Assembly: GCA_964626775.1 (NCBI GenBank)
Contig: CAZVGQ010000001.1
Span: 1-40,117, forward strand
DNA from: an uncultured Smithella sp.
Lineage (GTDB): Bacteria > Desulfobacterota > Syntrophia > Syntrophales > Smithellaceae
Reading direction: 5' to 3'
DNA: 40,117 bases
The translations under genes and the position numbers were made by a program. This document shows positions 7,551-29,098 of the stretch, piece after piece; positions within the stretch are counted from its first letter, which is position 1; each line of letters opens with the position of its first letter. The notes beneath the pieces were generated by a model that was given only the letters and a program-made list of their open reading frames with translations, made no database searches and was not told the DNA's origin.

Positions 7551-7574
7551 GGGGATTCTCCTTTTGTTGTTACG

Positions 7575-8846: not shown

Positions 8847-9652
8847 ATTTTCTCCTTTACCGATTGTAAAAACGCCAGAACGGCTTGATTGAACGGTTCA
8901 CTGTCTTCGATAAAAAAACAATGCCTCAGGGCTGGAAACATTTTCAGATGCGCATGAGGCATCAGCTCTTTTAAAATCACGGAATTTTGCGGCGGAATGA
9001 GCGGATCATCCTCTCCGGACAAAATCAGTGTCGGCGCTTTGACCAAGGAGATGCGGTTGACCGTATCATGCTTCTGGCAGGCGTTGAACTGTTGTACAAA
9101 CGCCTCCGCCGGCTGGTACCAGCGCATGGAAAGCTCGCTGAAGATCCTGACCTCCTCAGGGTGGTTGCGGATAAATCGATCGGAGAAAAAAATATCCATA
9201 TTCTTTTGAAGGATTTCCTCCGGGGTCAGCCCTTGTATATCCGCAAATTTTTCCGCCCGGTCTGCGCTCATGGTCACGGCGCGGGTCCCGCCGGCGCCTG
9301 TGGATACCAGCGTCAGACTGTCGACCATGTGTGGATGGCTAATGGCCAGCTCCTGGGCGATATAACCTCCCATGGAATAACCGAGAATGTGAGCGTGTTT
9401 AATGCCCAGAGAGCGCATCAATCCGGCCGTATCATCGGCAAATTGCTCGATGCTGTATTCACCCGCCGGTTTGTCGGTTCGCCCGGACCCGCGATTATCG
9501 AACACGATCACCTGGTAATGCGCCGACAGATCCGGCAATTGTTTGTACCACCATTCAATGTTGCGGCGAATGCCCATGATGAGCAACAGGGGTTCGCCGC
9601 TCCCGTGAATTTCGTAATATATATTGATCCCGTTGACATTTTGTTGGGGCAT
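8843..9652 (-). CDS. alpha/beta hydrolase (esterase or C-C hydrolase type)
   Basis: NGINIYYEIHGSGEPLLLIMG and a GYSMGG nucleophile elbow. I chose the start at ATG 9652, 2 nt after the upstream gene's TAA. The longer ORF would overlap that gene. Confidence 0.8.
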   Translation of the reverse strand: MPQQNVNGINIYYEIHGSGEPLLLIMGIRRNIEWWYKQLPDLSAHYQVIVFDNRGSGRTDKPAGEYSIEQFADDTAGLMRSLGIKHAHILGYSMGGYIAQELAISHPHMVDSLTLVSTGAGGTRAVTMSADRAEKFADIQGLTPEEILQKNMDIFFSDRFIRNHPEEVRIFSELSMRWYQPAEAFVQQFNACQKHDTVNRISLVKAPTLILSGEDDPLIPPQNSVILKELMPHAHLKMFPALRHCFFIEDSEPFNQAVLAFLQSVKEKI

Positions 9653-9653
9653 T

Positions 9654-10892: not shown

Positions 10893-10950
10893 AATCCTTT
10901 CCTTTCTTTTGAAATGTAATGTTTGTTAACCCGTTTGAATCTGCAAAATG

Positions 10951-12246
10951 CTATTGTCTGTAAATCTCTTTAAATTCCCGCTTTAAGTCTTCTCTGAATT
11001 CAGGAGCCGCGATTTTTGACAGGGCTTCCACGCGTTCCCTGACGGTTTTCCCCCAAATGTTGGCAATTCCATATTCCGTGACAATGTAATCTACTTCGGC
11101 ACGCGTCGTGGTAACAGCCTGGCCTCTTTCAAAGGCTGCCACAATCCTCGATTTTGTGCCGGACGCCGCAGTAGCCGGCAAAGCAATCACACTCCTTCCC
11201 CCTGATGAAATTCTACAGCCTCTCACAAAATCAACTTGTCCTCCAACACCGCTATACTGAACGGGACCGATGGCATCTGCCGCAACCTGTCCCAACAGGT
11301 CAACGGCCACCGCTGAATTAACGGAAAACATGTTGTCGTTTCTTCCAATAACGTAAGGATTGTTGGTATAATCAACAGGATGCATCTCAATCATGGAATT
11401 CTCATGCATCCACTCATAGAGCTGGTCGCTCCCCAGGGCGAATGTAAAAATCATTCTGCCGCGATGGAAGTTCTTTTTCCGGCAGGTGATGATCCCTTTT
11501 TCAACGAGATGCATCACCCCGTCAGAAATCATTTCCGAATGGATGCCGAGGTCATGCTTTCCTTCTATAAATCTCAATATGGCATCCGGAATCTGGCCAA
11601 ATCCCAGCTGCAGACAGTCGCCGCTTTTAATTAATGTGGCCACATTAGACGCAATAGCTTCTTCCACCGGCCCAATGTTGGGCGACGGAAGCGGCAACAT
11701 GGGACGATCACTGACAATAAAGTGACCGATCTGTGAAACATGCAGAAAAGTGTCTCCATAGGTTTTCGGCATGAAGGGCGAAACTTCCGCAATAACCTTT
11801 TTGGCATTTAAAGCCGCGGCCAGGGAATAATCCACGGAGATGCCCAGGCTGACGTTCCCCACTTTATCGGGCAGCGATACCGAAATCAGGGCAACGTCAA
11901 TCGGCAGAACGCCTCTACGAATTAATGAGGGATAGTCGCTGAGGAATGCCGCCGTGAAATCAGCACGATCCTCTCTTATGGCCTGCCTTTGCGTAGGTCC
12001 GGCAAACATGGCATTATGTCGAAAAGAATTCTGATATTCAGGACGACAATATAAACTTTTGCCATAAGATACCATGTGCACGATTTCTACGTTCTGGAGT
12101 TCATGAGCTCGTTTGACCATCGCGTCATAAACCGGTTCAGGCGTGCCTCCGCCGGTTCCTGAAATGATTCGATCCCCCGACTTGATCAAATGTGCTGCTT
12201 CTTCTACGGTGATTGCTCGTTCACGGATGTATTGGTTCCAGTCCAT
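10951..12246 (-). CDS. acetyl-CoA hydrolase/transferase family protein, 4-hydroxybutyrate CoA-transferase-like
   Basis: Typical length (~431 aa) and motifs: GIHSEMISDG (candidate catalytic Glu), SGVGGQVDF (GxGGxxD) and YIVTEYGIANIWGK. ATG 12246 lies 7 nt after AGGAG. Confidence 0.8.
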   Translation of the reverse strand: MDWNQYIRERAITVEEAAHLIKSGDRIISGTGGGTPEPVYDAMVKRAHELQNVEIVHMVSYGKSLYCRPEYQNSFRHNAMFAGPTQRQAIREDRADFTAAFLSDYPSLIRRGVLPIDVALISVSLPDKVGNVSLGISVDYSLAAALNAKKVIAEVSPFMPKTYGDTFLHVSQIGHFIVSDRPMLPLPSPNIGPVEEAIASNVATLIKSGDCLQLGFGQIPDAILRFIEGKHDLGIHSEMISDGVMHLVEKGIITCRKKNFHRGRMIFTFALGSDQLYEWMHENSMIEMHPVDYTNNPYVIGRNDNMFSVNSAVAVDLLGQVAADAIGPVQYSGVGGQVDFVRGCRISSGGRSVIALPATAASGTKSRIVAAFERGQAVTTTRAEVDYIVTEYGIANIWGKTVRERVEALSKIAAPEFREDLKREFKEIYRQ

Positions 12247-12272
12247 CACTAACTCCTATTGGCCTTTTCTTG

Positions 12273-12983
12273 TTAAACACCCAGGTATGTCTTCATGATA
12301 TCCGGCCGCCTTTTTAGTTCCAGAACACTGCCCTGCCACAGTACATGACCCTTTTCGAGGATGTAGACGCGGTCTGATACATTAAGCGCGAAACTGGAAT
12401 TTTGTTCGGAGAGAAGAATCGTCAACCCTTCCTTCTTGAGTTCCATAATTTGATCTTCAATCATCTGGGTGACCATGGGCGCGAGACCTTCGGAGGGTTC
12501 GTCGAGCAGCAGCAATAAAGGATTTCCCATCAAAGTACGGGCAATCGTGAGCATCTGCTGTTCGCCTCCTGAAAGCGTGCCTGCCCATTGGCCGCTGCGC
12601 GTTTCCAGAACCGGGAACAGGCGATGCACTTTCTCCATTGTCCAGTTGAGGCTCTTTCTGCTTTTCGGACTGTCCTTCATGGCGATTTCGAGGTTTTCAC
12701 GTACGGTCAGATTGGAAAATATTTCCCGATCTTCAGGCACAAATCCCACGCCGAGGCGGGCGATTTTGAAGGGCGGCTTGCTGGTGATTTCAGTTCCCAG
12801 GAACTTGATGTGGCCGGACTGTGGATGCGTAAGCCCCATAATGCTGCGAAAAGTTGTTGTCTTTCCCACACCATTGCGCCCCAGCAGACACACCGTCTCA
12901 CCTTCATGAACCTCCATGGAAACATTGAATAAAATATGACTCAGATCATAGTAAGTGTTGATCTCACGAATTTCTAATAGCAT
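12273..12983 (-). CDS. ABC transporter ATP-binding protein (LivF-type)
   Basis: Walker A GRNGVGKTT, signature LSGGEQQ and Walker B LLLLDEP. Its start overlaps the upstream stop by 1 nt. Confidence 0.9.
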   Translation of the reverse strand: MLLEIREINTYYDLSHILFNVSMEVHEGETVCLLGRNGVGKTTTFRSIMGLTHPQSGHIKFLGTEITSKPPFKIARLGVGFVPEDREIFSNLTVRENLEIAMKDSPKSRKSLNWTMEKVHRLFPVLETRSGQWAGTLSGGEQQMLTIARTLMGNPLLLLLDEPSEGLAPMVTQMIEDQIMELKKEGLTILLSEQNSSFALNVSDRVYILEKGHVLWQGSVLELKRRPDIMKTYLGV

Positions 12984-13726
12984 CAGTGATTTCCCTCCCC
13001 CAGATAAATTCTCTGCACTTCACTGTTATTGCGGACGCTCTGTGGCGTTCCGCTGAAAATCACCGCGCCTTGATGCAAAACAATGATTTTGTCGGATATC
13101 CCGAAGACGACCTTCATATCGTGTTCCACAAAGATTAGTGTCAATCCCCGTTCCCTGACTAGTTTCTGAATGAGTTGAGTGGTTTCTTCCGTTTCCTGCG
13201 GGCTCATCCCCTGTGTGGGCTCATCGAGCAACAATAAGGAAGGATTCGTTGCCAGTGCAATGCCCATTTCCAGACGCTTCTGATCCCCATGCGCCAGAAG
13301 ACCTCCTTTGAAATGCTTTTTGTTCAGGAGTCCCACACTGTCCAGAATGGCTTCCGTTTCAGAAACGACCATTTTTTTGGCATTGGAAAAAAGCAGGTGA
13401 CTTTTACCCGTGGCGGAAAGGATGGCCACTTGAATGTTTTGAAAGGTAGTCAGCTTGGAAAAAATGTTGATGCGCTGGAACGAACGGCCTATCCCCATGC
13501 GCGAAATCAAATGAGGCGCAATGCCGGTGATGTTCCTGCCACGAAAAAAAACGTTTCCGGAATCAGGAACAATATGTCCGGTGAGGAGATTGAACAAGGT
13601 TGTTTTTCCCGCCCCGTTGGGTCCGATGACGGACACGAGTTCTTTTTCCTGAATTTGGAAGCTGATGTCGTTGGTCGCGGTGATGCCGCCGAATTTCTTG
13701 ATCAGATTGTTCGCTTCAAAAATCAT
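12983..13726 (-). CDS. ABC transporter ATP-binding protein (LivG-type)
   Basis: Walker A GPNGAGKTT and Walker B LLLLDEP. The start MIFEANNLIKKFGG is at 13726, in an ATGA overlap with the permease stop. Confidence 0.9.
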   Translation of the reverse strand: MIFEANNLIKKFGGITATNDISFQIQEKELVSVIGPNGAGKTTLFNLLTGHIVPDSGNVFFRGRNITGIAPHLISRMGIGRSFQRINIFSKLTTFQNIQVAILSATGKSHLLFSNAKKMVVSETEAILDSVGLLNKKHFKGGLLAHGDQKRLEMGIALATNPSLLLLDEPTQGMSPQETEETTQLIQKLVRERGLTLIFVEHDMKVVFGISDKIIVLHQGAVIFSGTPQSVRNNSEVQRIYLGEGNH

Positions 13727-14703
13727 AGTCCGTTTTCTTCCTTTCCGCCACTGAACCGGTCCGCCGCCCAAGCCAGCTTTTCATGAATAAAGCCGACGAT
13801 CCCGCTGCGCATGAATAAGACCAAAAACGCGATGATGATCCCCAGATAAAACATCCAGTAAGTTGTTCCTTTGGCAATGGTTTTGCTCAGGAAGATATAA
13901 ACCACGGAACCAACGATGGGTCCGGCAAAGCTGTGCAGTCCGCCGAGAAGACAGACGACAAGCATATCGGTGGATTTTGCCCAGTGTGCATAATCGGGAA
14001 AGACGCTGCCCGCAAAAACGCAGTAGAGCGAACCGGCGATGCCCAGAAAAATGCTGGAGATGACAAAGATGGCAAGCTGATAGCGGCGAACGGCCACGGA
14101 AATAAATTCCGTGCGCAGCGGGTTTTCGCGAATGGACTGAATGGTGATGCCAAAAGGAGAATGGACGATCTTCCAGATGATAAAAATGCAAATGAGCGTA
14201 ACGGCCAGAATGAAATAGTAAGACTGAATGATGGAGGACACATAGTCGGGAATGGGAACGCCGATGATGCCGTTGTCGCCGTTGGTGAAATCGTACCACT
14301 GAAAAATCACAGTCCAGATGATTTGGGCAAAGGCCAGCGTCAAAAGCGCGAAGTAAACCGCATTGCGGCGGACGCAAAACCATCCCACCGCAACGCCGAC
14401 GAGTCCCGCCATGACCGGCGCCGCAAGAAACGCGGCGGGCAAAGGCATGCCGTAACGCGACAGAAGAATCGCGGTCGTGTATGCGCCCACGCCGTAAAGT
14501 CCCGCGGGCCCGAAGGACACCATCCCGCCGTAGCCGACGATCAAATTCAGCGCGCAGCCGGCCAGCGCCATGATCAGCATTTCTATGATTAGACTGATCC
14601 AGCTTTTGGAGACGACCAATGGCGCTGCGATCAACAAAACAATGACGGCCAAAACCAGCCAGATACCGGCCGTGCGTAATTTGGCAAATAACGGTGTATA
14701 CAA
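13723..14703 (-). CDS. branched-chain-amino-acid-type ABC permease (LivM-type)
   Basis: A polytopic membrane protein with LivM-like length and composition. It sits between a LivH-type gene and a LivG-type gene. TTG start. Confidence 0.85.
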   Translation of the reverse strand: MYTPLFAKLRTAGIWLVLAVIVLLIAAPLVVSKSWISLIIEMLIMALAGCALNLIVGYGGMVSFGPAGLYGVGAYTTAILLSRYGMPLPAAFLAAPVMAGLVGVAVGWFCVRRNAVYFALLTLAFAQIIWTVIFQWYDFTNGDNGIIGVPIPDYVSSIIQSYYFILAVTLICIFIIWKIVHSPFGITIQSIRENPLRTEFISVAVRRYQLAIFVISSIFLGIAGSLYCVFAGSVFPDYAHWAKSTDMLVVCLLGGLHSFAGPIVGSVVYIFLSKTIAKGTTYWMFYLGIIIAFLVLFMRSGIVGFIHEKLAWAADRFSGGKEENGL

Positions 14704-14714
14704 TTGATTTCCCC

Positions 14715-15593
14715 CTATTCCGGCTTACCCATGAGACCCCATGGACGCACGATTAAAATGATGATCATGAGCATGAAGGGAAAAGCCACGGCCAGTTTCG
14801 GCATCACCAGAATCCCAAAAGCATTGAGAAAACCCAGAATGACCGCACCGATAAAAGCGCCAGGCAGGCTTCCCAGACCGCCGATGACAACGATAATGAA
14901 GCATTCAATAATCACGTGCATATCCGCGCCCAGCGCCACAACCGACATGGGGGGCATCAAAGCACCGGCGAGCCCCGCAAGATAACAGCCCAGCATGAAA
15001 ACGCCGGTATAAACCCGGGGCACATTGATGCCCAGCGCGTTGGCCATATCGCGGTTCAGCGTGACGGCCCGTACAATCCGACCTAATTCGGTATAGCGCA
15101 TCAAAGCGAGCAAAGCGGCAAAAATGGCCATTCCGCAAATGATCAGGAAGATGTTGTAAATCGGGAATGACATACCCAGAAAGGCAATGCTTCCGGTCAG
15201 CGGCCAGGGGACGGCTATGGTTTTAAAGGAAACACCAAAAACGTATTTTAAAACGTCGCCAAAAATCAAAATCAGCGCGAAGGTCAATATGTACTGGTAG
15301 AGCATGTCCTGCGAATAGATGCGCCGAAGCAGCAGGACTTCAACAAATCCTCCCAGTACGGCCACCGTGATGGGGGCAAGAAGCAGAGCCCACCAGAAAG
15401 AACCGCCGGCGTTGGCAAACATGTTTGTGAAGGCAAAACACAAAAAGCTTCCCATCATGAAAAAGGTCCCGTGCGCCAGGTTCAGAATTTTCATGGTTCC
15501 GAAGATGAGGGATAACCCCGCTGCAATAAGAAACAAGACAAGCCCGACGCTGATTCCACTGATAAATTGACTGACAAACGACTCAATCGTCAC
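14715..15593 (-). CDS. branched-chain-amino-acid-type ABC permease (LivH-type)
   Basis: A LivH-like N-terminus (SGISVGLVLFLIAAGLSLIFGTMKILNLAHG). The GTG start is preceded by AAGGAGG. Confidence 0.85.
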   Translation of the reverse strand: MTIESFVSQFISGISVGLVLFLIAAGLSLIFGTMKILNLAHGTFFMMGSFLCFAFTNMFANAGGSFWWALLLAPITVAVLGGFVEVLLLRRIYSQDMLYQYILTFALILIFGDVLKYVFGVSFKTIAVPWPLTGSIAFLGMSFPIYNIFLIICGMAIFAALLALMRYTELGRIVRAVTLNRDMANALGINVPRVYTGVFMLGCYLAGLAGALMPPMSVVALGADMHVIIECFIIVVIGGLGSLPGAFIGAVILGFLNAFGILVMPKLAVAFPFMLMIIILIVRPWGLMGKPE

Positions 15594-15664
15594 TGACCCA
15601 ACCTCCTTCTGGCACAGGGCCCGGGATATGAATCTTTACCCCGGGCCCCGCAGGTCATCTGTAA

Positions 15665-16897
15665 TTATTTCGCGGCCCGGATTTTCTTGATCTGATCCAG
15701 GGTATGATATCCTTCTTCGCCGATCGGCGTGACCTTCACGACATGTGGGAAAGGAAGTTTCGAAGAATAATCCATAATGCCGTACCAGGTGGGCATCATC
15801 GCCTGATGGTCATAGGCCCGGATTTGGACTTTGCCGATCAGGGTATTCAGCGTCATGCCTTCCAATGCTTTGATGATTTTTTCAGTGTCGACCGCGCCGG
15901 CCTTTTCAATGCCTGCTTTCAAAGCGTAAATGCTGTTGTAATGATTCATGGCGCCATAAGAGGGCCATTGGCCGGTCTTGCTCTTGTATTTTTCCACAAA
16001 CGCTTTGCTTCGGGGATTGTCGATGGTCCAGAAGGGGTATCTGGTCGTGGCCAGCGCGCCCTTGGGAAAAGGACCGCCTTTGGTCACGGTGTACCAGGAT
16101 TCGATATCGCCCGCACAGGGCTGCACGGCCAGCATTTGGTCATAAAGACCGAAAGCCGCCGCCTGCTTGGTAAAGGCAAGTTCTCCACCGCCATAAACCG
16201 CTGCAAGGTAAAAAGCATCGGCCCCGGAATTTTTGATTTTGTTGATGTAAGCGGTATAATCGGTTGTTCCTAACGGGGCCCACAGTTCATCAATGATCTT
16301 GGCGTCGGGAACCAGTTCCAGGTATTTTTCCTTAAATTCTTTAAGCGCAGTTTTGCCGGTTTCATAGTCCCATCCGAGACTGATGATCTTCTTTACTTTT
16401 TTGGTCTTGGCCAGCGCGATTGCCGGAGCGTAGCCCCAGTATACGACGGAATTCGTCGCGATGCGGAAAATGTAGGGATGGAATACCTCTTCCGTCATCC
16501 GGGAAGACTGGGCATTGCTGGGCATGAAGATAATTTTTTCTTTTTTTGCGTAACTGGAAACAGCCATCCCTACTGCACTGCTGACCGTTCCAGTTAAGAA
16601 ATCCGCTTTTTCACTGATCACCAGATCCTTGGCCTCGCGCATGCCGACTTCAGGATTGGCTTTGTCGTCGCGTGTGATCATCTTGATAGGCCTGCCTAGA
16701 ATGCCGCCTGTGGCATTGATTTCCTCAATGGCGATACTGCCTCCTGCCTCCGAGCTGATTCCGTACATAGATAGAGCGCCACTCATGGAATGAATATGCC
16801 CGATAATAATAGGTTCCTTTTCTGCCGACTGCGACGAAAACACTAGGCCAAATACCGACAGCATAGCAACCGCCCATACAATGAGATGTTTTTTCAT
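15665..16897 (-). CDS. ABC transporter substrate-binding protein (type 1 periplasmic-binding fold)
   Basis: A signal peptide (MKKHLIVWAVAMLSVFGLVFSSQSA) and EEINATGGILGRPIK. GGAGG lies upstream of the ATG. This is the first gene of the apparent operon. Confidence 0.85.
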   Translation of the reverse strand: MKKHLIVWAVAMLSVFGLVFSSQSAEKEPIIIGHIHSMSGALSMYGISSEAGGSIAIEEINATGGILGRPIKMITRDDKANPEVGMREAKDLVISEKADFLTGTVSSAVGMAVSSYAKKEKIIFMPSNAQSSRMTEEVFHPYIFRIATNSVVYWGYAPAIALAKTKKVKKIISLGWDYETGKTALKEFKEKYLELVPDAKIIDELWAPLGTTDYTAYINKIKNSGADAFYLAAVYGGGELAFTKQAAAFGLYDQMLAVQPCAGDIESWYTVTKGGPFPKGALATTRYPFWTIDNPRSKAFVEKYKSKTGQWPSYGAMNHYNSIYALKAGIEKAGAVDTEKIIKALEGMTLNTLIGKVQIRAYDHQAMMPTWYGIMDYSSKLPFPHVVKVTPIGEEGYHTLDQIKKIRAAK

Positions 16898-18687: not shown

Positions 18688-19935
18688 CTACAAGGCTTGA
18701 ATTACTGCAGCGGGCACCCAGCGGATGTTCTGCGGCTCGGTGAACTTGCTCATCTTCTTGTATTTTTCAAACTCTTCCTTGGTTTTCGGAAAGCTGAAGA
18801 TGTAATCCACCTTGCCGAATTTTCCGTTCTGGACCTGCTGCAGAACGCCGCCGCAATACATAACGCCCCGGTCATCGATGGTGAACAGCTCGTTGGGATA
18901 TTGATCGCCGGTCGTCGGCAGGGCTTTGGCGATGTTCTTGCGGATCTCCACCGCCTTGATGGAATCGGCGGCCCTGATGGCTCGCGCGAGAACGTGCATC
19001 ATGTTGTAATTCAGCGCGCATTCCCAGGTCATGTCTCGCTGATAGGCTTTGCTGTATTTTTTTGCGAAGACCGGCGTGATCGGCAACGGCAGATCCCGGC
19101 AGGAAGCGGTGCTGATCAATCCTTCCAGCAACTTCATGTTTTTGAGCACTTTGGCGATGTATTCGGGCTTGGCCTGGTCGATCATGACGAAGCCGCCTTT
19201 GAATCCCATGTTTCTGGCCTGTTCAATGACCAGCGCGGTTGTGGCCGATGGGCCGCCGATCAGGAGAAAGTCCGGTTTTTTGGAGAGTGCCGATGTGAGT
19301 TGGGACGAAAAGTCCGTCTCTGCGAAGTAGTTGGCCGGGAAATCGCCGACGATCTGGCCGCCTTTGGCCGTCCAGGCTTTGTTCCATGTGCTGCGCCACG
19401 CGTCCCCGTAAGCGCCCACGGTGACCACCATCGCGCAGGTTTTCCAGCCTCTGGCCAGGGCGGCGTCCGACATGTTCATCACATAGCCCACGAAGTTGGG
19501 CGTCGGGGTGATGATCAGGGGATGCTTCTTGTCGAAGAACACGTGAATGCTGGTGTAGGCGGCGATGATAAATTCGCTGCCGGGTGTCTGGGGGATCGAC
19601 ATCACGGAGCCGATCGTGGTTCCGATGGGAACGAAAACAAAGGGTGCTTTGTCCTGTGAAACGAAACGCAAGGTATTATTTTTTGCCCGGGTCGGATCGA
19701 CGGCGTCATCGAGCTTTTCCAGCCTGAACGTTTATTTCTTTCCCTTCACCTTCATGCCGCCCGAGGCGTTGATTTCTTTGACGGCCATGTCGATTCCGTT
19801 GAGGCAATCCTGGCCGTATTCGGCGGCGGGGCCGCTCAACGGACCGGTAAAACCGACGACGATTTCCTCGGCGTCTGCTTTCGCGCCCCAGGCGGCGGCC
19901 AAAAACACGAACAGGAAACACAACAACCGCTTCAT
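18688..19935 (-). pseudogene. ABC substrate-binding protein paralog interrupted by one in-frame TAA
   Basis: The 67-aa ORF (19732-19935) and the 327-aa ORF (18688-19671) are in the same frame, and the stretch between them is open. The only interruption is the TAA at 19732-19734. The joined product, ...GGMKVKGKK*TFRLEKLDDAVDPTRAKNNTLRFVSQDK..., aligns colinearly with the intact paralog at 9654-10892 (...GGFKVSGVPHTFKLERMDDRIDPVQTVNN...). Confidence 0.75.
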
Positions 19936-20115
19936 GACTTGCCTCCTCTTTCTGACGACGGACGATGAACCGTTGAAACGGCTTTTTCACCGGGGTTCCC
20001 GGCGTCTTTATATTTTTTTGTTTCGCGGTGTAAGGGGTCATACTATTGGGAATACGGCCTGTCAATGAAAAGCTGTCCAGTCCCGGCGGGCGCCGTTCTG
20101 CTTTCCCGTTTGTTT

Positions 20116-20145
20116 TTTACAAATTTCCGCGCGGCTTTATATAAA
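20116..20145 (+). promoter_or_regulatory. candidate sigma70 promoter at the 5' end of the long leader (TTTACA, then TATATAAA)
   Basis: TTTACA at 20116-20121. The -10 region TATATAAA at 20138-20145 gives hexamer options at 16-18 nt spacing. Confidence 0.35.
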
Positions 20146-20505
20146 AAACGAGTTGAATTTTTTTTCGTTGACAAACCCGCCAACTTATTTTAAGCAGTAA
20201 AAAACTTTTTTCGCTATATGTGCCGATGTTTCGGGGTGCCATAACAAAGCAGCTGAAAAGCGCATGACTGTTGGAAGCCGAATCCTGGAACGAATGTCCA
20301 AGCGGTTTTCCTGAAGAGGGAACAGATACAACTTCCTGAAGCTTTGGAGGCCTTGTGGTCGCAATCGTTTTTGCGTTAAAACGGATTGCCCGGACTCAGA
20401 TCAACCCGCCCAACTCCCAAAAGGATGAAACACCGACTCACAGCCATTTACTAACCGTCAGTCATTTTCCATTTTTCAAAAATCTACCATTCGCAATTTT
20501 TCCAT

Positions 20506-20551
20506 CAGCCGCCGGCCGGGTTGTGCTATGGCCCGGCGGCTGTTGCGTTTT
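20506..20551 (+). terminator. intrinsic terminator-like hairpin inside the leader upstream of the second transporter operon
   Basis: A GC-rich 10-bp stem, CAGCCGCCGG (20506-20515) pairing with CCGGCGGCTG (20533-20542). It is followed by TTGCGTTTTT. No plus-strand CDS lies upstream of it. Confidence 0.6.
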
Positions 20552-20681
20552 TGCTCGATGCACCGGAGGTCTTCCGCTCCGGGGCTGATCCAGGCGAAAG
20601 AAGTGGTCCACCGAAAACGGAGGGCCTTCTCATCAGCGTGGCATTGAAAAAATTTCGATTGATCAAAGAGGGTAAAAAGGC

Positions 20682-21557
20682 ATGGTGACGTATATTGAGA
20701 ATGTTCTGGTTTTTACGTTTGTAATGGGGTCCATTTATCTTCTGCTGGCCCTTGGCTTCTCCCTGATCTGCGGGGTGCTGCGGATTTTTCATCTTGGATA
20801 CGCCTACATCTTTCCACTTACGGTTTACGGTACCTGGATGTTCATGTCGGCCCTGGGATGGCCCCTGATTCCCTCCATTCTCGGAATGATCGTCGTTCAG
20901 TTCATCGTTTCCATCATTATTTACAAGGGAATGATCAAGAAATACATGACGACGGAAGATGTCCTCCTGACAGCCCTTCTGCTGGTCGCGCTGATCGTGG
21001 AACAGGCCGCGAATTACTTTTATCCGATTCAGACGGGCGTGTATCTGGAAACCACTCTGGCCGAAGGCACCTATCAGTTCGGTGACGCGGTGGTGCCCAA
21101 ACAGCTGATTATCGGCGCCCTGATCGCGCTGGCGATGACCGGCGCCTTTGTATTCTTCTTTGTTAAAACAAAAACCGGCATGGCCATCCGCGCTTTGTCC
21201 CAGGATATTTATTCATCGAAAATTGTCGGTATTAATGTTGAAACGCTTTATATTTTTACGATGATGATCGTCCTTTTGCCTGTTATCATCGGTACGCTTC
21301 TTACAGCGCCTGTCTGGTCAGTTGAGCCGGCCATGGGTTGGATGTACATGGTGACAGCGATCCTGGTCGCGGTTTTAGGCGGGTTGGGCAACATTAAAGG
21401 CACGATCATTGCCAGTTTTTTAATCGGATTTACCCACGCCATTGTTTGTTTTGTTCTCGGAGAGCCGCGCTTCATGAATCTGTCGGCGCTGATTCTCGTC
21501 ATGATCATATTGGTTATTCGACCCCAAGGATTAGCAAGGAGTGAATCGCTATGGTAG
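20682..21557 (+). CDS. branched-chain-amino-acid-type ABC permease (LivH-type)
   Basis: A polytopic membrane protein with a LivH-like N-terminus (FVMGSIYLLLALGFSLICGVLRIFHLGYA). Confidence 0.85.
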   Translation: MVTYIENVLVFTFVMGSIYLLLALGFSLICGVLRIFHLGYAYIFPLTVYGTWMFMSALGWPLIPSILGMIVVQFIVSIIIYKGMIKKYMTTEDVLLTALLLVALIVEQAANYFYPIQTGVYLETTLAEGTYQFGDAVVPKQLIIGALIALAMTGAFVFFFVKTKTGMAIRALSQDIYSSKIVGINVETLYIFTMMIVLLPVIIGTLLTAPVWSVEPAMGWMYMVTAILVAVLGGLGNIKGTIIASFLIGFTHAIVCFVLGEPRFMNLSALILVMIILVIRPQGLARSESLW

Positions 21558-22591
21558 AAATGGAATTAAAGAGAGACCGAATTGTTATCCGGCTTGGAAC
21601 AAAAAAGTGGGAATGGGTTCTTGAGCCGCGTTACTGGCGCAACACCCTGCTGTGGGCGGCCTTCCTAATGATCGCCCCGGCGGTCGCCTATTTTGTCAGC
21701 CCCGGGTTGATCAACACGATGATTTCAGCCAATATCTACGCCGCCATTGCAATGCCGCTGGCGCTGATGACCATCGGCACGGGGCGCATGAATTTCGGCC
21801 CTCAATTTTACATCGGCGTGGGAGGCTATACGGCGGCGCTCTTGAGCATTGCTTACGGTTGGGGGCCGCTGACTACTTTGCCCTTTGCCATCCTGATGTC
21901 CATGATTGCGGCGCTGATCTTCAGCCCGCTGGTCATCATGGCGCGGGGCCTTTACTACGTTCTCCTGACGCTGCTGCTGCCGCTGGTTTTTCTGGAAGTG
22001 ACCTTCATCTATACCGACATTTTCAAGGGCGATACGGGACTTTTCGGCATTGTGCCGCTTTTGGACACCGGCAACGCCAAAAACAATTTTTTGATCATCG
22101 GTTATCTTTCCACGGCGATCATGTTTGCTTATTTGTGGTTCATCAACAAAATCCTGAAATCCCGCTACGGGCTTTTAATGGCGTCGATCAACGATGATGA
22201 AGATGTTGCCCACTCCATCGGCATCAATATCAACAAGATCAAAATTATCGCATTTGTCGCCGCCTCGACGCTGATCGGCATCATCGGATGGTTTTACGCG
22301 CACTATTTCAGCTCGTTTGCCGGCATTACGTACCTGCCGCTGACGTTTATGCTGAAGGTTCTCTTGGTCCTGATGATCGGCGGACGCGCCCAGGTGTTCG
22401 GCTGCGTGGTCGGCGGCTATTTTGTCGCCTTCTTGGAGATGCTGATGATTCGATTTATGGGGCCGATCCAACCGCTGTTGTTCCCCATTATTCTTCTGAT
22501 TTTGTTGTTTATTCTTCCGGAAGGCTTGTTCGGCCTTTATCGAAAGCGCCGTTATCGCGAATATTTGCCAACCATTCACGTGCGGAGGTAG
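21551..22591 (+). CDS. branched-chain-amino-acid-type ABC permease (LivM-type)
   Basis: A polytopic membrane protein of LivM-like size. It overlaps the upstream permease gene by 7 nt. Confidence 0.85.
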   Translation: MVEMELKRDRIVIRLGTKKWEWVLEPRYWRNTLLWAAFLMIAPAVAYFVSPGLINTMISANIYAAIAMPLALMTIGTGRMNFGPQFYIGVGGYTAALLSIAYGWGPLTTLPFAILMSMIAALIFSPLVIMARGLYYVLLTLLLPLVFLEVTFIYTDIFKGDTGLFGIVPLLDTGNAKNNFLIIGYLSTAIMFAYLWFINKILKSRYGLLMASINDDEDVAHSIGININKIKIIAFVAASTLIGIIGWFYAHYFSSFAGITYLPLTFMLKVLLVLMIGGRAQVFGCVVGGYFVAFLEMLMIRFMGPIQPLLFPIILLILLFILPEGLFGLYRKRRYREYLPTIHVRR

Positions 22592-22597
22592 AAAGCC

Positions 22598-23344
22598 ATG
22601 ACTCCATTGGTGAAAGTAAGCAATCTGGTCAAGCGTTTCGGAGGAATCGTGGCGGTCAACGACGTATCCTTTGAAATTTACAAGGGGGAAACGCTGGGGT
22701 TTATCGGTCCCAACGGCGCCGGCAAATCCACCGTGGTCAATTGCCTGACGGGTTATCTTCCCGCGACGTCCGGAAAGGTGGAAATGAACGGCGTGGACAT
22801 CACGCGCATGAAGCCGCATCAGAGAGTGCATATGGGGCTTGCCCGCACCTATCAGATACCGCGTCCTTTTCCGGAGCTCACCGCGCTGACCAGCGTACTG
22901 GCCAGCTCCATTTCCGGCAAAAAAAGAGTCAACCAGAGTTTTCAGGACGCCATGTATGACGCGACGCATTATCTGGAATTCGTCGGGCTCTTCAGCAAGC
23001 GCAACATTCTGGCGCGTGACCTGACTTTTTATGAACTGAGAATGCTGGAGCTGGCGAGAGCCCTGGCCACGACGCCCCAGCTGCTGTTTATTGACGAAGT
23101 CATGGCCGGCCTGAATCCCGGAGAAGCCAAAAACGCCATCCAGATGATCCGGAAGGCCAAGGAGCAATTCGGCATTACGGTCTTCTGGATCGAGCATGTC
23201 ATGGCGGTCCTGATGGAGGCGGCCGACAGGATTGTCGCGATCAATTACGGGGCCAAACTGGCGGAAGGCACACCGGATCAGGTGGTGAATAATGATGATG
23301 TAATTGAAGCGTATCTGGGCAGAGGTTGGAGGAAATATGCTTGA
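22598..23344 (+). CDS. ABC transporter ATP-binding protein (LivG-type)
   Basis: VSNLVKRFGGIVAVNDVSF, Walker A GPNGAGKST and Walker B LLFIDEVMAG. Confidence 0.9.
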   Translation: MTPLVKVSNLVKRFGGIVAVNDVSFEIYKGETLGFIGPNGAGKSTVVNCLTGYLPATSGKVEMNGVDITRMKPHQRVHMGLARTYQIPRPFPELTALTSVLASSISGKKRVNQSFQDAMYDATHYLEFVGLFSKRNILARDLTFYELRMLELARALATTPQLLFIDEVMAGLNPGEAKNAIQMIRKAKEQFGITVFWIEHVMAVLMEAADRIVAINYGAKLAEGTPDQVVNNDDVIEAYLGRGWRKYA

Positions 23345-24041
23345 AGTAAGTGATCTGAGCGCGTCTTACGGCGTCATACCGGCGCTGCACGGGGTCAGTT
23401 TCAATGTCCGGCAGTCGGAAATCGTGACCATCCTGGGATCGAACGGCACGGGGAAAAGCACGATCCTCAATGTCGTTCAGGGCATGATGACCGGCACCAG
23501 CGGCAGAATTATTTTCCGAGACGAAGCCATTCAGGGTCTGCCGTCGCATAAAATTGTCGATCGGGGAGTTGTGCAGGTCCCGGAAGGCATGAAAAGTTTT
23601 CCTTTTATGACCGTCAAAGAAAATTTGATGCTGGGGGCCTATCGGAAAACATCCTGGTCTAAAAGAAAACAAACGATTCAATATGTGTACAGCCTTTTCC
23701 CGATTCTGAAGGAACGCTCCAACATGTCGGCCCGCCTCCTTTCCGGCGGTGAGCAGCAGATGCTGAAGATCGGACGGGGGCTGATGGCCAATCCGCATCT
23801 TTTGATGGTGGATGAACCGTCCATCGGTCTGGCGCCGCTTATTGTGGACAGTGTTTACGAAACGCTTGGGAAGCTTCGGGAAACGGGGCTGACCATTCTC
23901 CTGACCGAGCAAAACGCCCTGCGCGCTCTGCAGCTGGCTGACCGTGGTTACATTCTTCAGGAAGGACGAATCGTTCTGGAGGGAAGATCGGCGGAATTGA
24001 TGAAGAACAATTTGGTGAAAAAGGCATATTTAGGGAGATAG
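23337..24041 (+). CDS. ABC transporter ATP-binding protein (LivF-type)
   Basis: Starts MLEVSDLSASYG at ATG 23337, after GGAGG. Walker A GSNGTGKST, signature LSGGEQQ and Walker B LLMVDEP. Confidence 0.9.
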   Translation: MLEVSDLSASYGVIPALHGVSFNVRQSEIVTILGSNGTGKSTILNVVQGMMTGTSGRIIFRDEAIQGLPSHKIVDRGVVQVPEGMKSFPFMTVKENLMLGAYRKTSWSKRKQTIQYVYSLFPILKERSNMSARLLSGGEQQMLKIGRGLMANPHLLMVDEPSIGLAPLIVDSVYETLGKLRETGLTILLTEQNALRALQLADRGYILQEGRIVLEGRSAELMKNNLVKKAYLGR

Positions 24042-24043: not shown

Positions 24044-25399
24044 ATGGAAGATTATTTTTCTTATACGGCAAAACTTTTCAATCCCGAGGAGGCAAGCCAA
24101 AAGCCTGAAGCGCTCAAAGGCATCCGGGTGATGGATTTTTCCCACGTCATCTTCGGGCCGATTGCGGCGAGGCTTCTGGCGGATTACGGCGCGGAAGTGA
24201 TCAAGCTGGAGCTGCCTTTTTACGGCGATCTTTGGCGTCCGGCGACGTACTGGGGCAAATACTGGAAGCACTCGAATCCCATTTGGCACAATATCACCAA
24301 GAACAAGTATTTCCTCTCGGTGAACCTGCAGCTCAGGGAATCGAAAGAACTGATTTATCAAATGGCCAAAGATGCGGACGTAGTCATTGAAAACTTTGCG
24401 CCCGGAACGGCGGACGCCTGGGGCATCGGCTATGAGAAAATCTCCAAAATCAACCCGAACATCATATTCTTGAGCTGTTCCACTTACGGCCAGTTCGGTC
24501 CGATGCGGTATTTCCCCGGGTGGGATCTTCTGGCCCAGGGCGCAAGCGGCGTGCTGACCCTGAACGGCTATCCGGACACGGACAATTTTTACAAGCTGCC
24601 GGACTACGTGGGCGACTTCGTGCCGGGCAATTTTGCCGCGCTGGCCGCGCTGATGGCGCTGTACTACCGGAAGAAAACCGGAAAGGGTCAGTACATCGAC
24701 ATGGCGCAGACCGAAGGGCTGATGCGAACCCTTTTTCATTATACCTATTATTCCGTGACTCAAAAAGCGATCGGACGCACCGGAAATGTCGATCCCACGA
24801 TGGTGCCGGCGGCCATCTTTAAAACGGCCGACGACAAGTTTCTGGCGCTGGCCTGCGCGACGTCCGAACAGTTTGAAAATTTCGCCCGGGCCATCGGCAG
24901 GCCCGAGCTGTCTTCGGATCCGCGGTTTTCGGATACGCTGGAGCGGCTGAAGCCGGAAAACGCCAAAGCGCTCCATGAGATCGCGGTGGACTGGATCCGG
25001 TCGCAGCCCTGCGCTGATGTGATCCGCCTGGCCGACGATAAGAATTTTCCGGCGGCGGAGGTGGCGGACGATTACATGATCGCCAATGAGGAATGGCGCC
25101 GCAAACGCGGAAGCGTGGTGCTTTTCAAGGACGATGTGTACGGCCATCTGGTGATTGCCGGTCCGTCCGCCATGCTTTCCGGCACGCCTTCCCGCACCAA
25201 GTGGCTGGCGCGGCCGCTGGGGTATCACAACCGGCTGGTGCTCAAGAAATTTCTGGGGTTGAGCGAAGCGGACATTGAAAAGCTGGAGAAGAAAAAAGTC
25301 ATCGGGACATTTGACGACAGACCGGGATTGAAGCCGCCTGTCTATTACGATCTGAGCAAGGACCCCATCTATAACTACGGAAAAGAGGTTGGAAAATGA
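24044..25399 (+). CDS. family III CoA-transferase (CaiB/BaiF/Frc family), putative catalytic subunit
   Basis: The N-terminal signature LKGIRVMDFSHVIFGPIAARLLADYGAEVIKLE. The segment GDFVPGNFAALAALMALYYRKKTGKGQ carries an Asp at the position of the catalytic Asp169 of CaiB/Frc (aligned from memory). Confidence 0.85.
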   Translation: MEDYFSYTAKLFNPEEASQKPEALKGIRVMDFSHVIFGPIAARLLADYGAEVIKLELPFYGDLWRPATYWGKYWKHSNPIWHNITKNKYFLSVNLQLRESKELIYQMAKDADVVIENFAPGTADAWGIGYEKISKINPNIIFLSCSTYGQFGPMRYFPGWDLLAQGASGVLTLNGYPDTDNFYKLPDYVGDFVPGNFAALAALMALYYRKKTGKGQYIDMAQTEGLMRTLFHYTYYSVTQKAIGRTGNVDPTMVPAAIFKTADDKFLALACATSEQFENFARAIGRPELSSDPRFSDTLERLKPENAKALHEIAVDWIRSQPCADVIRLADDKNFPAAEVADDYMIANEEWRRKRGSVVLFKDDVYGHLVIAGPSAMLSGTPSRTKWLARPLGYHNRLVLKKFLGLSEADIEKLEKKKVIGTFDDRPGLKPPVYYDLSKDPIYNYGKEVGK

Positions 25400-26718
25400 G
25401 CCCCAAGGAAGAAGTCTATACACGGCACGGCGGCAAGGGCGGCGACCGGGGGAAAATTCTCGCCGAAATGATGAACGCCGAAGGAAAACCGGAAGTGCTC
25501 GACGACATTCTGGTGCTGGATGTCAGCTCGGCCAATTTTGCCGGCATTATTGCCGCCAGCTTCTTTGCGGAGTTCGGCGCGGAGGTCGTCAAAATCGAGC
25601 CTCCGAAAGGCGACCCGGCCCGGCAGATCACGCCTTTCGGCGTGACGGTGCAGGGGGTGGGCATTCCCTTCATGTTCGAAGGACGCAATAAGCGGTACAT
25701 GACGCTCGACATTCGGAACAGGCCGGAAGACAGGAAAACGTTCGCGAAGCTGGCCAAACAGGCGGCGGTTGTGATTGAAAGCTTTGCGCCCGGTGAGATG
25801 GACGGCTGGGGGATCGGCTACCGCCAGTTGTCCGTGGAGAATCCCGGATTGATCTACATCGCGCTTTCCGCCTACGGACAGTACACGGATAAAGCCAGAG
25901 AGTCCGCGGGAGTTCCGGATACGGACGTTACGTCCCAGGCGGGTTCAGGGCTTCCCGCGCAGATGGGCGCGCCGCCCAATGAACCGGAGCCCTATACCTG
26001 GCCTCTCAGAGGCGGCATGTGGGCGGGCTGGTACATTTCCGGGCTTTCCGCGGCCGTGGGGGGAACGGTCGCCCTCATCCACCGGCAAAACACCGGCCAG
26101 GGACAGATGGTGGATGTCGCCGGAATGGACGCGTATTCCTCCATGGTCGGCATGCCCGCCACCATCGGCTTTACCTGGGAAAAAGCCAGACCGCGCATCG
26201 GCGTTCTGGACTTCATTCTCTATCCGTACGGCCACTGGAAATGCAAGGACGGCTATGTGGCGATCGCCGCGCCGCGGGACCATGATTTCCGCGCGCTCTT
26301 GAAGGTTCTGGGCCTGTGGGAGCAGGAAGACGACTGGCGCTATTCGTCGGACCGCATCCCCGATATTCTGGAGCAGGCCATTCATTTGCACAAGATCATT
26401 GAGGAAAAAACGCTGCTGTACACCGGCGACGAACTGGTGAAGATGGCGCTCAATTACAGCAAAAAATCCGCCCGCTCCAAGTGGCGGGGCGGCGGCGTGC
26501 CCATTGTCATGAAGCTGATGACGCCCGAAGCCGCGATGGAAAACAAGCAGTGGCACATCCGCAAGGCTTTTCAGGACGTGGAGGACAAAAAGCTGGGCAA
26601 GTACACGATCAGCTCCAATTTTGTAAAAATGTCCGAATCGCCTCCCCGCGTGAAATGGGTGGGAAGCGAAATCGGCGGGGATAATGAATATATCCGGAAA
26701 AAATATTTAAACGATTAG
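25396..26718 (+). CDS. family III CoA-transferase paralog, putative non-catalytic partner subunit
   Basis: LDDILVLDVSSANFAGIIAASFFAEFGAEVVKIEPPKGDP. In the aligned segment GWYISGLSAAVGGTVALIHRQNTGQGQ a Trp stands where the paralog has Asp. An ATGA start/stop overlap couples it to the upstream gene. Confidence 0.8.
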   Translation: MSPKEEVYTRHGGKGGDRGKILAEMMNAEGKPEVLDDILVLDVSSANFAGIIAASFFAEFGAEVVKIEPPKGDPARQITPFGVTVQGVGIPFMFEGRNKRYMTLDIRNRPEDRKTFAKLAKQAAVVIESFAPGEMDGWGIGYRQLSVENPGLIYIALSAYGQYTDKARESAGVPDTDVTSQAGSGLPAQMGAPPNEPEPYTWPLRGGMWAGWYISGLSAAVGGTVALIHRQNTGQGQMVDVAGMDAYSSMVGMPATIGFTWEKARPRIGVLDFILYPYGHWKCKDGYVAIAAPRDHDFRALLKVLGLWEQEDDWRYSSDRIPDILEQAIHLHKIIEEKTLLYTGDELVKMALNYSKKSARSKWRGGGVPIVMKLMTPEAAMENKQWHIRKAFQDVEDKKLGKYTISSNFVKMSESPPRVKWVGSEIGGDNEYIRKKYLND

Positions 26719-26787: not shown

Positions 26788-28149
26788 ATGATGAAGAGAG
26801 CAAGCAGAGTCAAGATGGTCGTTGTGACGGCGCTGGTACTGCTGGTTGCGATTGCTATCAGCGTACCATCCGTTGCAGTGGCGCAGCCGAAGGGAGAGCC
26901 GTTTGTGATCGGCTACATCGGCATGGTCGGATCGCCGGGCACCCGCCCGTGCATGGATATCCAGAAAATGGCGGTGGAGGAAATCAACGCCACCGGCGGC
27001 ATTCTGGGCCGGCCGGTCAAGTACGTGGTCATGGACAACAAGGGTGACACGTCTCTGTCCGTTGAGGCGTTTCGCAAACTGGTCATTGAGGACAAGGCGA
27101 AATTCATCTCCGTCGAAGGCCGGACGGAAATCTGCCTGGCCGTTCAGGAAGCCTCCGGAATGCTGTTTAAGGAATACCCCCACATTCTGGTTTTCAACGG
27201 GCCGATGGGCGCGGAACTGACGGCGCGCATCATCGATGAGGCGCCGAAATACAATCACTGCTTCCGTGACTGGGATCCGGAGCCGGCGCATTATGCCCAG
27301 ACGAAGTATTTCTTCTGCAAGACCATGCCCCAGTACCAGAAAACCAAAAAAATTGCTTTCCTCTGGGAGGATCTTGCTTGGACCACGGAATGGCGCAAAG
27401 GCATCAGCTACATCGATCTGCCCACCTGGGAAAAAATGGCCAAAGACTGCGGTCTGGAAGTGGTGTACAGCAAGGCGGTCAAACCCCGCGGCACCATGTA
27501 CCTGCCGATTCTGCAGGATATCAAAAAATCCAACGCCGATTTGATTTTCTACATCAGCTCGTGGTTTACGGACACGGAATCTTTTGCCAAACAGTGGTCG
27601 GATTCCGCGGCCAGGGACATTCAGGTCAACCTCTACGGCGGCGTTGCTCAGACCTACGATTACTGGCGGATGACGGGAGGCAAGGCCCTGGGGATCATCA
27701 GTTCCTTCACGGATCTGGATGATATTCCTCTGACGCCTAAAACCGTTCCGCTGGTCAAAAAAGCCCATGCACGGAAAATCCCCATGCAGATCCATGTCCA
27801 TATCGCTTATGCTGATATTTATCATTTCAAGGCGGCCATCGAAAGAGCGAAAGGAACCGGCAACATCAATGCGCTCATCAAGGCCATGGAGGATGTGGAA
27901 ACGGTCTATTCGCTGGGCAAGATGAAATATGAAACACGCAAAATCAAACCTTTCTACCATTCCCGCATGAGGGTTGACGCGGCTAATCCTTGGAAGACCT
28001 ATCCCGGATATTACCTGCAGCTGATTGTTCAGTTCCAGAAGGACGGCAAGGTTGCCTTCCTGCACGAGTCCTGCGAGGAAAACGAAAAACTGGTATCCAA
28101 ATGGGTGGATCCCAAACGCTATAAGACCCCGGCCGAGTTGAGGAAGTAA
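26788..28149 (+). CDS. ABC transporter substrate-binding protein (type 1 periplasmic-binding fold)
   Basis: A signal peptide (MMKRASRVKMVVVTALVLLVAIAISVPSVAVA) and EEINATGGILGRPVK. ATG 26788 follows AGGAGGGG. Confidence 0.85.
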   Translation: MMKRASRVKMVVVTALVLLVAIAISVPSVAVAQPKGEPFVIGYIGMVGSPGTRPCMDIQKMAVEEINATGGILGRPVKYVVMDNKGDTSLSVEAFRKLVIEDKAKFISVEGRTEICLAVQEASGMLFKEYPHILVFNGPMGAELTARIIDEAPKYNHCFRDWDPEPAHYAQTKYFFCKTMPQYQKTKKIAFLWEDLAWTTEWRKGISYIDLPTWEKMAKDCGLEVVYSKAVKPRGTMYLPILQDIKKSNADLIFYISSWFTDTESFAKQWSDSAARDIQVNLYGGVAQTYDYWRMTGGKALGIISSFTDLDDIPLTPKTVPLVKKAHARKIPMQIHVHIAYADIYHFKAAIERAKGTGNINALIKAMEDVETVYSLGKMKYETRKIKPFYHSRMRVDAANPWKTYPGYYLQLIVQFQKDGKVAFLHESCEENEKLVSKWVDPKRYKTPAELRK

Positions 28150-28154: not shown

Positions 28155-28184
28155 TGCAGGGAACAGTAGCGACTGTTCCCTGCA
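28155..28184. other. perfect 12-bp hairpin immediately after the substrate-binding-protein stop
   Basis: TGCAGGGAACAG (28155-28166) pairs with CTGTTCCCTGCA (28173-28184) across a 6-nt loop. No U-tract follows it. Confidence 0.4.
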
Positions 28185-28193
28185 GACTAAAAG

Positions 28194-28229
28194 AAAAGGG
28201 GCGGCATTCTTGTGAAGGCCGCCCCTTTT
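28194..28229. terminator. bidirectional Rho-independent terminator between convergent genes
   Basis: AAAAGGGGCGGC ... GCCGCCCCTTTT. The 8-bp GC stem is flanked by A4 on one side and T4 on the other. It lies between the SBP gene (+) and the enoyl-CoA hydratase gene (-). Confidence 0.6.
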
Positions 28230-28315: not shown

Positions 28316-29098
28316 TTATCGGCCTTTGAATTGCGCCGGTCTTTTTTCCAGAAACGCTTTGGAGCCTTCTTTGAAATCTTCGGTGACCAGCAAGGTCTGG
28401 AAGGCGGCTTTCTCAACCTTGGTGATGCCGTCGTAAAGGGTGCCCTCCAATCCCAGACGGACGGCTTTCATAATCTCGCGCTGCGCCACGGGAGCGCCAC
28501 CCGCCAGCTTTTTGGCCAGCTTTTTGGCGGCTTCCAGCACTTCGGCGCCGGGGACGACCTTGTTGAGCAAACCGAGCGCGAGCGCTTCTTTGGCAGGCAT
28601 AAAGTCACCGGTGAGCATGAGTTCCAGCGCCTTGGTTTTGCCGATATAGCGGGGCAGACGCTGGGTTCCGCCCCAGCCGGGGTTGAGGCCCAGTTTGACT
28701 TCGGGAAGACCCACGACTGCTTCTTCCGCCATAATTCTCAAATGGCAGGAGCAGGCCAGTTCCAGTCCCCCGCCTAGGGCCAGGCCCTGAATGGCCGCGA
28801 TGATGATCTTGGGATAATTTTCAATTTTGAAATACACGTCGTTGCCGTCGTACTGGGGCACTTTACCCGACTGGAGGTCGGCAAACTCGGTAATGTCCGC
28901 GCCCGCCGAAAAGCATTTCGGGCCGGTGCCGGTAATGATGATCACTCGCACGGAGTCGTCCTTTTCGCATCGGTTGAGCAGTTCGGTTAAATCCCGCAGA
29001 ACCCCCTGCGCCATTGCGTTGGCCGGCGGATGATTGATGGCCGCCACCACGACAGCGCCGTCTTGTTCCACAACCAGTTTTTCATACTCAAAAGCCAT
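28316..29098 (-). CDS. enoyl-CoA hydratase/isomerase (crotonase family)
   Basis: [14 protein letters not shown]..., [19 protein letters not shown] and [17 protein letters not shown], which are crotonase-fold hallmarks. AAGGAGG lies upstream of the ATG. Confidence 0.9.

Follow-up and report, generated by a model that had tools for sequence, protein, structure and literature searches.

A family III CoA-transferase gene pair with a predicted catalytic and an Asp-less subunit in an ABC-importer cassette of Smithella and its relatives

The stretch of DNA analysed here, called the window, is 40,117 nucleotides (nt) long and comes from an uncultured Smithella sp. (contig CAZVGQ010000001.1 of assembly GCA_964626775.1). 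It carries two adjacent genes for family III coenzyme A (CoA) transferases, here called A and B, which lie in a cassette together with the genes of an ATP-binding cassette (ABC) importer, livHMGF and a solute-binding protein. Enzymes of this family activate acids at no cost in ATP, which is important for syntrophs and for other anaerobes that live near the thermodynamic limit. Comparison of the pair with its relatives suggests that A and B are a widespread variant of the heteromeric family III CoA-transferase, in which one subunit lacks the catalytic Asp, and that this variant is fixed in the importer cassette. The Asp-less partner itself already has a precedent. The two proteins probably form an obligate interlocked heteromer, with a single working site for each A-B pair.

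Both genes give full-length matches to the family III model PF02515 (cut-off 23.3 bits), A over profile positions 1-366 with 306 bits and B over positions 1-365 with 259 bits. None of the NCBIfam equivalog cut-offs is reached by A or B, the best score being 177 bits against a required 504. The end of A reads ...GGA AAA TGA, so that the ATG of B at 25396 forms a 4-nt ATGA overlap with it, and AGAGG is found about 8 nt 5' of the B start. An initial annotation, made from the sequence without database searches, had described two family III paralogs joined by ATGA and embedded in a LivHMGF plus binding-protein operon. Both parts of that description are confirmed, the profile matches giving the order livHMGF-A-B-Peripla_BP_6 (Table 1). 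The same genome has two other family III genes, on contigs C51 (4541-5683) and C77 (394-1461) of genome G000; these are unpaired, keep the catalytic Asp, and are placed with the homodimeric enzymes in the tree.

The catalytic column was located by means of the E. coli K-12 caiB, frc and yfdE sequences. The alignments took in A, B, the orthologs of both and the two other family III genes of the genome, and were made as phmmer pairwise alignments against PDB chains, as a MAFFT auto alignment of 137 sequences, and as two L-INS-i alignments. All three approaches agree that the column of Asp169 in CaiB and Frc is occupied by Asp191 in A and by Trp212 in B. Across about 70 species-level genomes the column holds Asp in all A orthologs (66/66) and Trp in all B orthologs (64/64), and neither Asp nor Glu occurs within eight residues on either side of Trp212 in B. 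The claims that the Asp of A sits at Asp169 of CaiB and Frc, and that B has a Trp there with no acid nearby, were thus borne out; the peptides quoted for them, YVGDFVPGNFAALAALMALYYRKKTGKGQ in A and AGWYISGLSAAVGGTVALIHRQNTGQGQ in B, are present, and the CaiB string quoted with them agrees with the E. coli K-12 caiB translation. When aligned with Frc, CaiB and the BbsE/BbsF sequences, A keeps the Asp, and it is missing from B and from chain A of the PDB entry 9fn0, a benzylsuccinate CoA-transferase. The column of the conserved Asn of Frc, N96, behaves in a similar way in a 127-sequence alignment, being Asn in all Asp-bearing groups and Ser or Thr in the B-like and BbsE-like groups. Judged from its sequence, B is a family III fold without the catalytic signature.

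The surroundings of the lost Asp are conserved in their own way. Among 36 homologs the B motif W202-P-L-x-x-G207-x-W209-x-x-W212-Y213 is invariant. B-type subunits have an insertion of 4-6 residues and an invariant aromatic/Pro motif, PEPY(T/N)WP(L/T)R(G/A)G(M/F/I)(W/Y)A, just before the lost Asp, and this motif (B residues 202-212, window 25999-26031) is common to the sister cassettes and archaeal copies described below. The conserved feature of B-type subunits is the absence of the carboxylate and not the Trp. That the Trp itself is functionally essential was considered and rejected, as the sister cassettes have Gly, Ser, Thr or Phe at this column.

The pattern of constraint in the two proteins was compared over 61 paired orthologs. 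Mean column entropy is 0.667 in B and 0.683 in A, and 32% of the columns are invariant in each, so by these measures B is as constrained as A and is not decaying. The constraint is located in different parts of the two chains. In the large-domain segments A25-44, 66-85 and 146-165 (Frc 6-25, 47-64 and 125-144) A is more conserved than B, but in the small domain, B248-383, B is much more conserved, and this is the most conserved part of B. The entropy of B269-308 is 0.16-0.23, as compared to 0.7-1.2 in A, and for the small domain as a whole the best windows of B stand against 0.7-1.5 in A. In family III proteins the small domain is normally less conserved than the rest. A would then have the normal pattern of a catalytic subunit and B an inverted one, as expected if the small domain of B completes the pocket of A and the reciprocal pocket is idle; constraint in the large domain of A and in the small domain of B is what one live site built from both chains should produce.

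A natural fusion of the two proteins also exists. The protein P0124, 916 amino acids (aa) long and from an Anaerolineae metagenome-assembled genome (MAG), has an N-terminal half that is 38.5% identical to A and carries the Asp, and a C-terminal half that is 39% identical to B and carries the Trp. The heteromer of one catalytic and one degenerate subunit, which had been proposed in the initial annotation to act on whatever acid the adjacent transporter brings in, gains support from the adjacency of the genes, this fusion, the conservation of B and the complementary constraint. It is well supported but not proven, and we infer from comparison the physical association of the subunits, the single live site and the CoA donor.

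The enzyme would probably work as follows. The live pocket would be made up of the large domain of A, with the nucleophile Asp191 and the CoA-binding loops, and the small domain of B. The reciprocal pocket, with Trp212 at the position of the Asp, would be catalytically dead and probably kept as a scaffold. The enzyme would be co-translated with the LivHMGF-type importer and its binding protein, and an imported carboxylic acid would be turned into its CoA thioester, with an abundant acyl-CoA such as acetyl-CoA or succinyl-CoA as the donor. Such a transfer would spare an energy-limited syntroph the ATP cost of a ligase.

A different explanation is that A is the whole enzyme, an active homodimer of the usual kind, and that B forms a homodimer of its own which is not catalytic. 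B could for example bind or buffer the acid or its CoA ester in the cytoplasm, or act as a regulator, and would merely be co-expressed with A. Most characterised family III enzymes are indeed homodimers (PMC5592240), and the pocket around Trp212, invariant and rich in aromatic residues, would suit a binding site. The natural A-B fusion, in the same order as the genes, speaks against this, as does the closest solved two-subunit enzyme with its same split into an Asp and a no-Asp chain. A small domain that is least constrained in A and most constrained in B is furthermore predicted by a shared site and not by two homodimers, and we consider this explanation quite unlikely. The strong purifying selection on B would also fit a B that is catalytic itself, with another nucleophile or another chemistry, for instance as an isomerase, a lyase or an intramolecular transferase that takes up the product of A, so that the pair would encode two enzymes of one pathway. 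The family III fold does include racemases and intramolecular transferases, as seen from the PDB matches and from PMC9813914, but in the racemases, as in the intramolecular Mct, it is again the Asp of this column that is used. In B there is no acidic residue near Trp212, the column varies between Trp, Gly, Ser, Thr and Phe in sister cassettes, which argues against a specific catalytic residue there, and the second family-wide pocket residue, at the N96 column of Frc, is lost as well. This makes a catalytic B very unlikely.

It could also be suspected that B is a duplicate in decay, about to end as a pseudogene, or that the assignment of the Trp is an artefact of the alignment. B does score lower than A against the family model, 259 as compared to 306 bits, and has a longer stem branch. 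The reading frame is however intact, with 32% invariant columns over about 61 genomes, B-like proteins have been kept into the Archaea at 41% identity, and three alignment methods point to the same column. This last explanation is already contradicted by the conservation and is so improbable that it can practically be disregarded.

Some observations weigh against the A-B heteromer as we describe it, or at least against parts of it. The complementary conservation was controlled with orthologs of BbsE and BbsF, for which only four pairs were at hand; the large domain clearly agrees, but one window on the small-domain side favours BbsE. An AlphaFold2 monomer model of B, made from the 36-sequence ortholog alignment, was poor, with a predicted local distance difference test score (pLDDT) of 50.9 and a predicted template modelling score (pTM) of 0.44, too poor for a fold search. 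The invariant aromatic motif around Trp212 shows the "dead" pocket of B to be under strong constraint, which could mean that it has a ligand-binding or regulatory role and is not a mere scaffold.

The closest comparison is with the benzylsuccinate CoA-transferase BbsEF, for which the PDB has the entries 9fn0, 9fol and 9fun. The initial annotation had named BbsEF as a precedent for two subunits, and this is correct, but it missed that one of the chains is Asp-less. Chain A of 9fn0 reads APDNQAYRMAEAY and has a Tyr at the Asp column, both when aligned with B and when aligned with YfdE. BbsEF and A/B are thus alike in having two adjacent paralogous family III genes, one with the Asp and one without, and the B open reading frame scores better against chain A of 9fn0 than against chain B, and the A open reading frame the reverse. 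An Asp-less partner is therefore already found in a characterised enzyme, which lowers the novelty of the split between A and B. The two systems also differ: the Asp-less subunit comes first in BbsEF and the Asp subunit first in A/B, the Asp column has Tyr in chain A of BbsEF and Trp in B, and the genes lie in the bbs beta-oxidation operon in one case and among the genes of an ABC importer (livHMGF and binding protein) in the other. Our literature searches found no paper that describes the 9fn0 structure or states that there are Asp-less family III subunits.

To find orthologs of BbsE, the fragment from 9fn0 chain A was searched against 401 genomes of the phylum and the neighbourhoods were fetched. 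Four BbsE orthologs with an intact partner gene were recovered, 58-69% identical to the fragment, and their partners read TNYTDHV, with the Asp. Among the other adjacent pairs and fused two-domain proteins that were fetched, all but one have Tyr or Ala in the first half and Asp in the second. Together with the fused proteins described below, this makes an Asp-less partner a general feature of paired family III genes. The single deviation in the BbsE-like clade is a fused protein in locus L096 (4053-6623), the first domain of which has an Asp (ATQADVM), while its split relative in L098 (4176-5513) has Ala; the Asp of this first domain could have been regained, or it could have been kept from an ancestor.

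Family III proteins of about 800 aa in which two domains are fused are common, with well over a hundred clusters (P0124-P0272, 50%-identity representatives). In most of them an Asp-less half comes before the half with the Asp, and the residue at the column of the first half is Tyr, Glu, Ala, Ser, His, Gln, Leu, Phe or Trp; of the two-domain proteins listed, only 13 have Asp in both halves, and one, P0124, has Asp followed by Trp. Of the fused proteins included in the tree, nearly all belong to the BbsE/F-type clade and begin with the Asp-less half. P0124 is the only one with the A-B order, and it groups with A and B. We know of no characterised member among these fused proteins.

The homodimeric enzymes Frc/YfdW, YfdE, CaiB and SUGCT and the intramolecular Mct share the fold and PF02515 with the pair, and A keeps Asp191 and the family-wide residues of the large domain. 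A homodimer has two identical sites, but B is without the nucleophile. The reaction of Mct goes via an aspartyl anhydride and a thioester (PMC9813914). Heteromeric family III enzymes are on record too. A malate CoA-transferase with an (alpha-beta)6 form is cited in PMC5592240, and SptAB, mentioned in PMC11659651, is reported to be a heteromeric family III enzyme. SmtAB and SptAB, compared by description only, resemble the proposed A/B enzyme in being reported as heteromeric. A search of a plasmid collection for the phthalate enzyme genes gave only generic single CoA-transferases, and the best match, from Peribacillus, was unpaired.

Whether the Asp was lost once or twice was addressed with trees. 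In a careful tree of 49 rows the A and B families are sisters (97/92), apart from the BbsE-like (100/100) and BbsF-like (100/100) clades. A quick tree of 127 rows has the A-like and B-like sequences in one clade, with a support of 100 in the Shimodaira-Hasegawa-like approximate likelihood ratio test (SH-aLRT), and the BbsE-like and BbsF-like sequences in another, with a support of 97. On the 127-row tree the Asp/non-Asp state changes at least 7 times. In the approximately unbiased (AU) test neither alternative was rejected, be it B joined to the BbsE-like clade (p 0.25, and p 0.126 at a log-likelihood difference, delta-lnL, of 46) or A joined to the BbsF-like clade (p 0.059); the groups in these tests were defined after the tree was seen, and long branches are involved. 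The order of genes and domains is reversed in A-B and in P0124, which begin with the Asp half, and this is in keeping with an independent duplication. An independent loss of the Asp in the A-B lineage and in BbsE/F is favoured by these comparisons, but not shown.

The cassette of livHMGF, A, B and the binding-protein gene is syntenic in about 70 loci of MAGs from Smithellaceae, Syntrophales and other Thermodesulfobacteriota, and A and B lie side by side in all related loci in which the two could be read, as they do in eight diverged sister cassettes. The junction is an ATGA overlap in 36 of 61 related loci, and in the remaining ones the aligned start of B lies 1 nt inside A or 5 to 24 nt beyond its end. 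Of the sampled genomes, 23 of 25 from the genus of the window have an ortholog of B, as do 44 of 201 from the class. Many of these genomes have one to three more cassettes with the same gene content. As compared to the window, the copies in these sister cassettes are 49-57% identical in A, 44-53% in B and only 30-34% in the binding protein, which is the most divergent gene. At the Asp column their A proteins have Asp and their B proteins Gly, Ser or Thr. The sister cassettes look like a family of uptake-and-activation modules with differing specificities.

The cassette is also found in Archaeoglobus and Pyrobaculum, with A proteins of 44-45% identity that keep the Asp and B proteins of 41% identity in which Trp or Thr stands at the column. 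B-like proteins that are more distant (33-43% identity), most of them with Trp, occur in Archaeoglobi, Bathyarchaeia, Campylobacterota and other MAGs. The Pyrobaculum cassette lies in a cluster that resembles beta-oxidation, with genes for acyl-CoA dehydrogenases, a thiolase with a DUF35-type protein, a crotonase, a short-chain dehydrogenase/reductase and a thioesterase, and this cluster also holds a gene of the HpaB/AbfD family and a family I CoA-transferase.

These comparisons define an uncharacterised subfamily, with a predicted catalytic A and an Asp-less B, which is genetically tied to an ABC importer. It is widespread in anaerobic bacteria and present in some archaea, genomes of the class often having two to four copies that have diverged from each other, and Archaeoglobus and Pyrobaculum are carriers in which experiments would be feasible. 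With an identity of only 30-34% between the binding proteins of sister cassettes, screening these for ligands would show which acids the organisms import. There is also a rule here for annotation: one half of paired or fused family III genes is usually without the nucleophile, and automatic labels such as "CoA:oxalate CoA-transferase" on such halves are therefore wrong. The pair is furthermore a case for how pseudo-enzyme subunits arise, possibly twice in one fold. It can be imagined, although we think it unlikely, that A/B is a second, independently evolved line of family III heteromers in which one subunit is a pseudo-enzyme, and that it forms with the importer an ancient mobile uptake-and-trap cassette of Bacteria and Archaea. 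The transferase would then act in concert with the ATPases of the transporter, physically or kinetically, in a vectorial CoA-esterification, and the constrained aromatic pseudo-site of B would serve for docking or for handing over the ligand and would not be an inert scaffold.

As the substrate we tentatively suggest 4-hydroxybutyrate or a related short hydroxy acid, a proposal that is rather doubtful. The window holds abfD, thiolase and crotonase genes, and a gene for a 949-aa fusion of an aldehyde:ferredoxin oxidoreductase and an iron alcohol dehydrogenase (AOR-ADH) at 169-3018. In the closest relatives, L002 (1-2544) and L017 (2-2301), abfD and the thiolase gene are directly upstream of the cassette and divergent from it. 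In the window the same two genes (3208-6069) are about 14.6 kb from the start of the cassette at 20682, with another block of transporter and esterase genes (6438-16897) in between. An AbfD paralog, 64-67% identical, lies about 2.4 kb downstream of the cassette in L015, L023 and L065, and a distant gene of the AbfD/HpaB family (31% identity) follows the Pyrobaculum cassette, inside the beta-oxidation cluster. The unusual AOR-ADH fusion turns up beside the cassette in unrelated Thermodesulfobacteriota: in a Desulfobacteraceae MAG (L106/L107, 996-3845) it directly precedes the cassette, and in L040 and L046 it is nearby. The recurrence of AbfD-family genes resembles the AbfT/AbfD route for 4-hydroxybutyrate in Clostridium aminobutyricum, in a minority of the loci. 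AbfT belongs however to another CoA-transferase family (PF02550/PF13336) than A and B, and the window already has an AbfT at 10951-12249. It also speaks against the proposal that the neighbourhood is loose: of 87 loci, 6 have AbfD-family genes and 3 have AOR-ADH. These neighbours thus hint only weakly at acids like 4-hydroxybutyrate.

Table 1. Features of the cassette in the window, and of related loci elsewhere (coordinates of the latter are those of each locus)
Feature	Coordinates	Strand	Remarks
livH-type ABC permease	20682..21557	+	PF02653 90 bits; syntenic in loci L001-L075
livM-type ABC permease	21551..22591	+	PF02653 95 bits; 7-nt overlap with livH; syntenic
livG-type ATPase	22598..23344	+	PF00005 and PF12399; NF008449 LivG-like 213 bits, under cut-off
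livF-type ATPase	23304..24041	+	PF00005; NF008626 LivF-like 253 bits, under cut-off
Subunit A	24044..25399	+	451 aa; family III CoA-transferase with Asp191; predicted catalytic subunit; PF02515 306 bits
ATGA start/stop overlap coupling A and B	25396..25399	+	Read from the sequence
Subunit B	25396..26718	+	440 aa; family III paralog, Trp212 replaces the catalytic Asp; predicted non-catalytic; PF02515 259 bits
Peripla_BP_6 solute-binding protein, signal peptide	26788..28149	+	PF13458 98 bits; start revised
Two GC-rich hairpins	28156..28228	.	Between the convergent binding-protein and enoyl-CoA hydratase genes; read from the sequence
Enoyl-CoA hydratase (crotonase)	28316..29098	-	PF00378 213 bits; convergent to the cassette
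Fused family III examples	L096 4053-6623; L099 4048-6606; L101 3145-5475		Genome neighbourhoods
Eight sister cassettes	L108-L115		Genomes G404, G434, G560, G486, G561, G540, G551; elsewhere in same-class genomes; binding protein, livHMGF, A, B
Archaeal cassettes	L117 Archaeoglobus 1933-9179; L118 Pyrobaculum aerophilum 5239-12705		livF/A and A/B genes overlap

The gene set of an importer of the HAAT family (LivHMGF type) is complete in the window, with two matches to PF02653, two to PF00005, one of them together with PF12399, and one to PF13458, and none of the importer genes reached an NCBIfam equivalog cut-off. Against the PDB, the best match of the binding protein is a distant Leu/Ile/Val-binding homolog (E 1.7e-13). 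The stop codon of livF is 2 nt ahead of the start of A. The TTG start listed for livF may be too early, as the family match begins only at residue 11. The longest open reading frame of the binding-protein gene starts at TTG 26743, but the predicted true start is ATG 26788, since this ATG is preceded by the ribosome-binding site AGGAGG and followed by a signal peptide, MMKRASRVKMVVVTALVLLVAIAISVPSVAVAQ. A scan for promoter and terminator consensus sequences gave results at or near shuffle expectation, and the 5' leader (19600-20750), scanned with Rfam for riboswitches, gave no match at E <= 1. The two hairpins behind the binding-protein gene are likely a bidirectional terminator that ends the operon. 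The crotonase gene on the other side of them is the convergent neighbour of the cassette in 21 of 87 related loci, and from this distribution it is loosely associated with the cassette and not a member of the operon.

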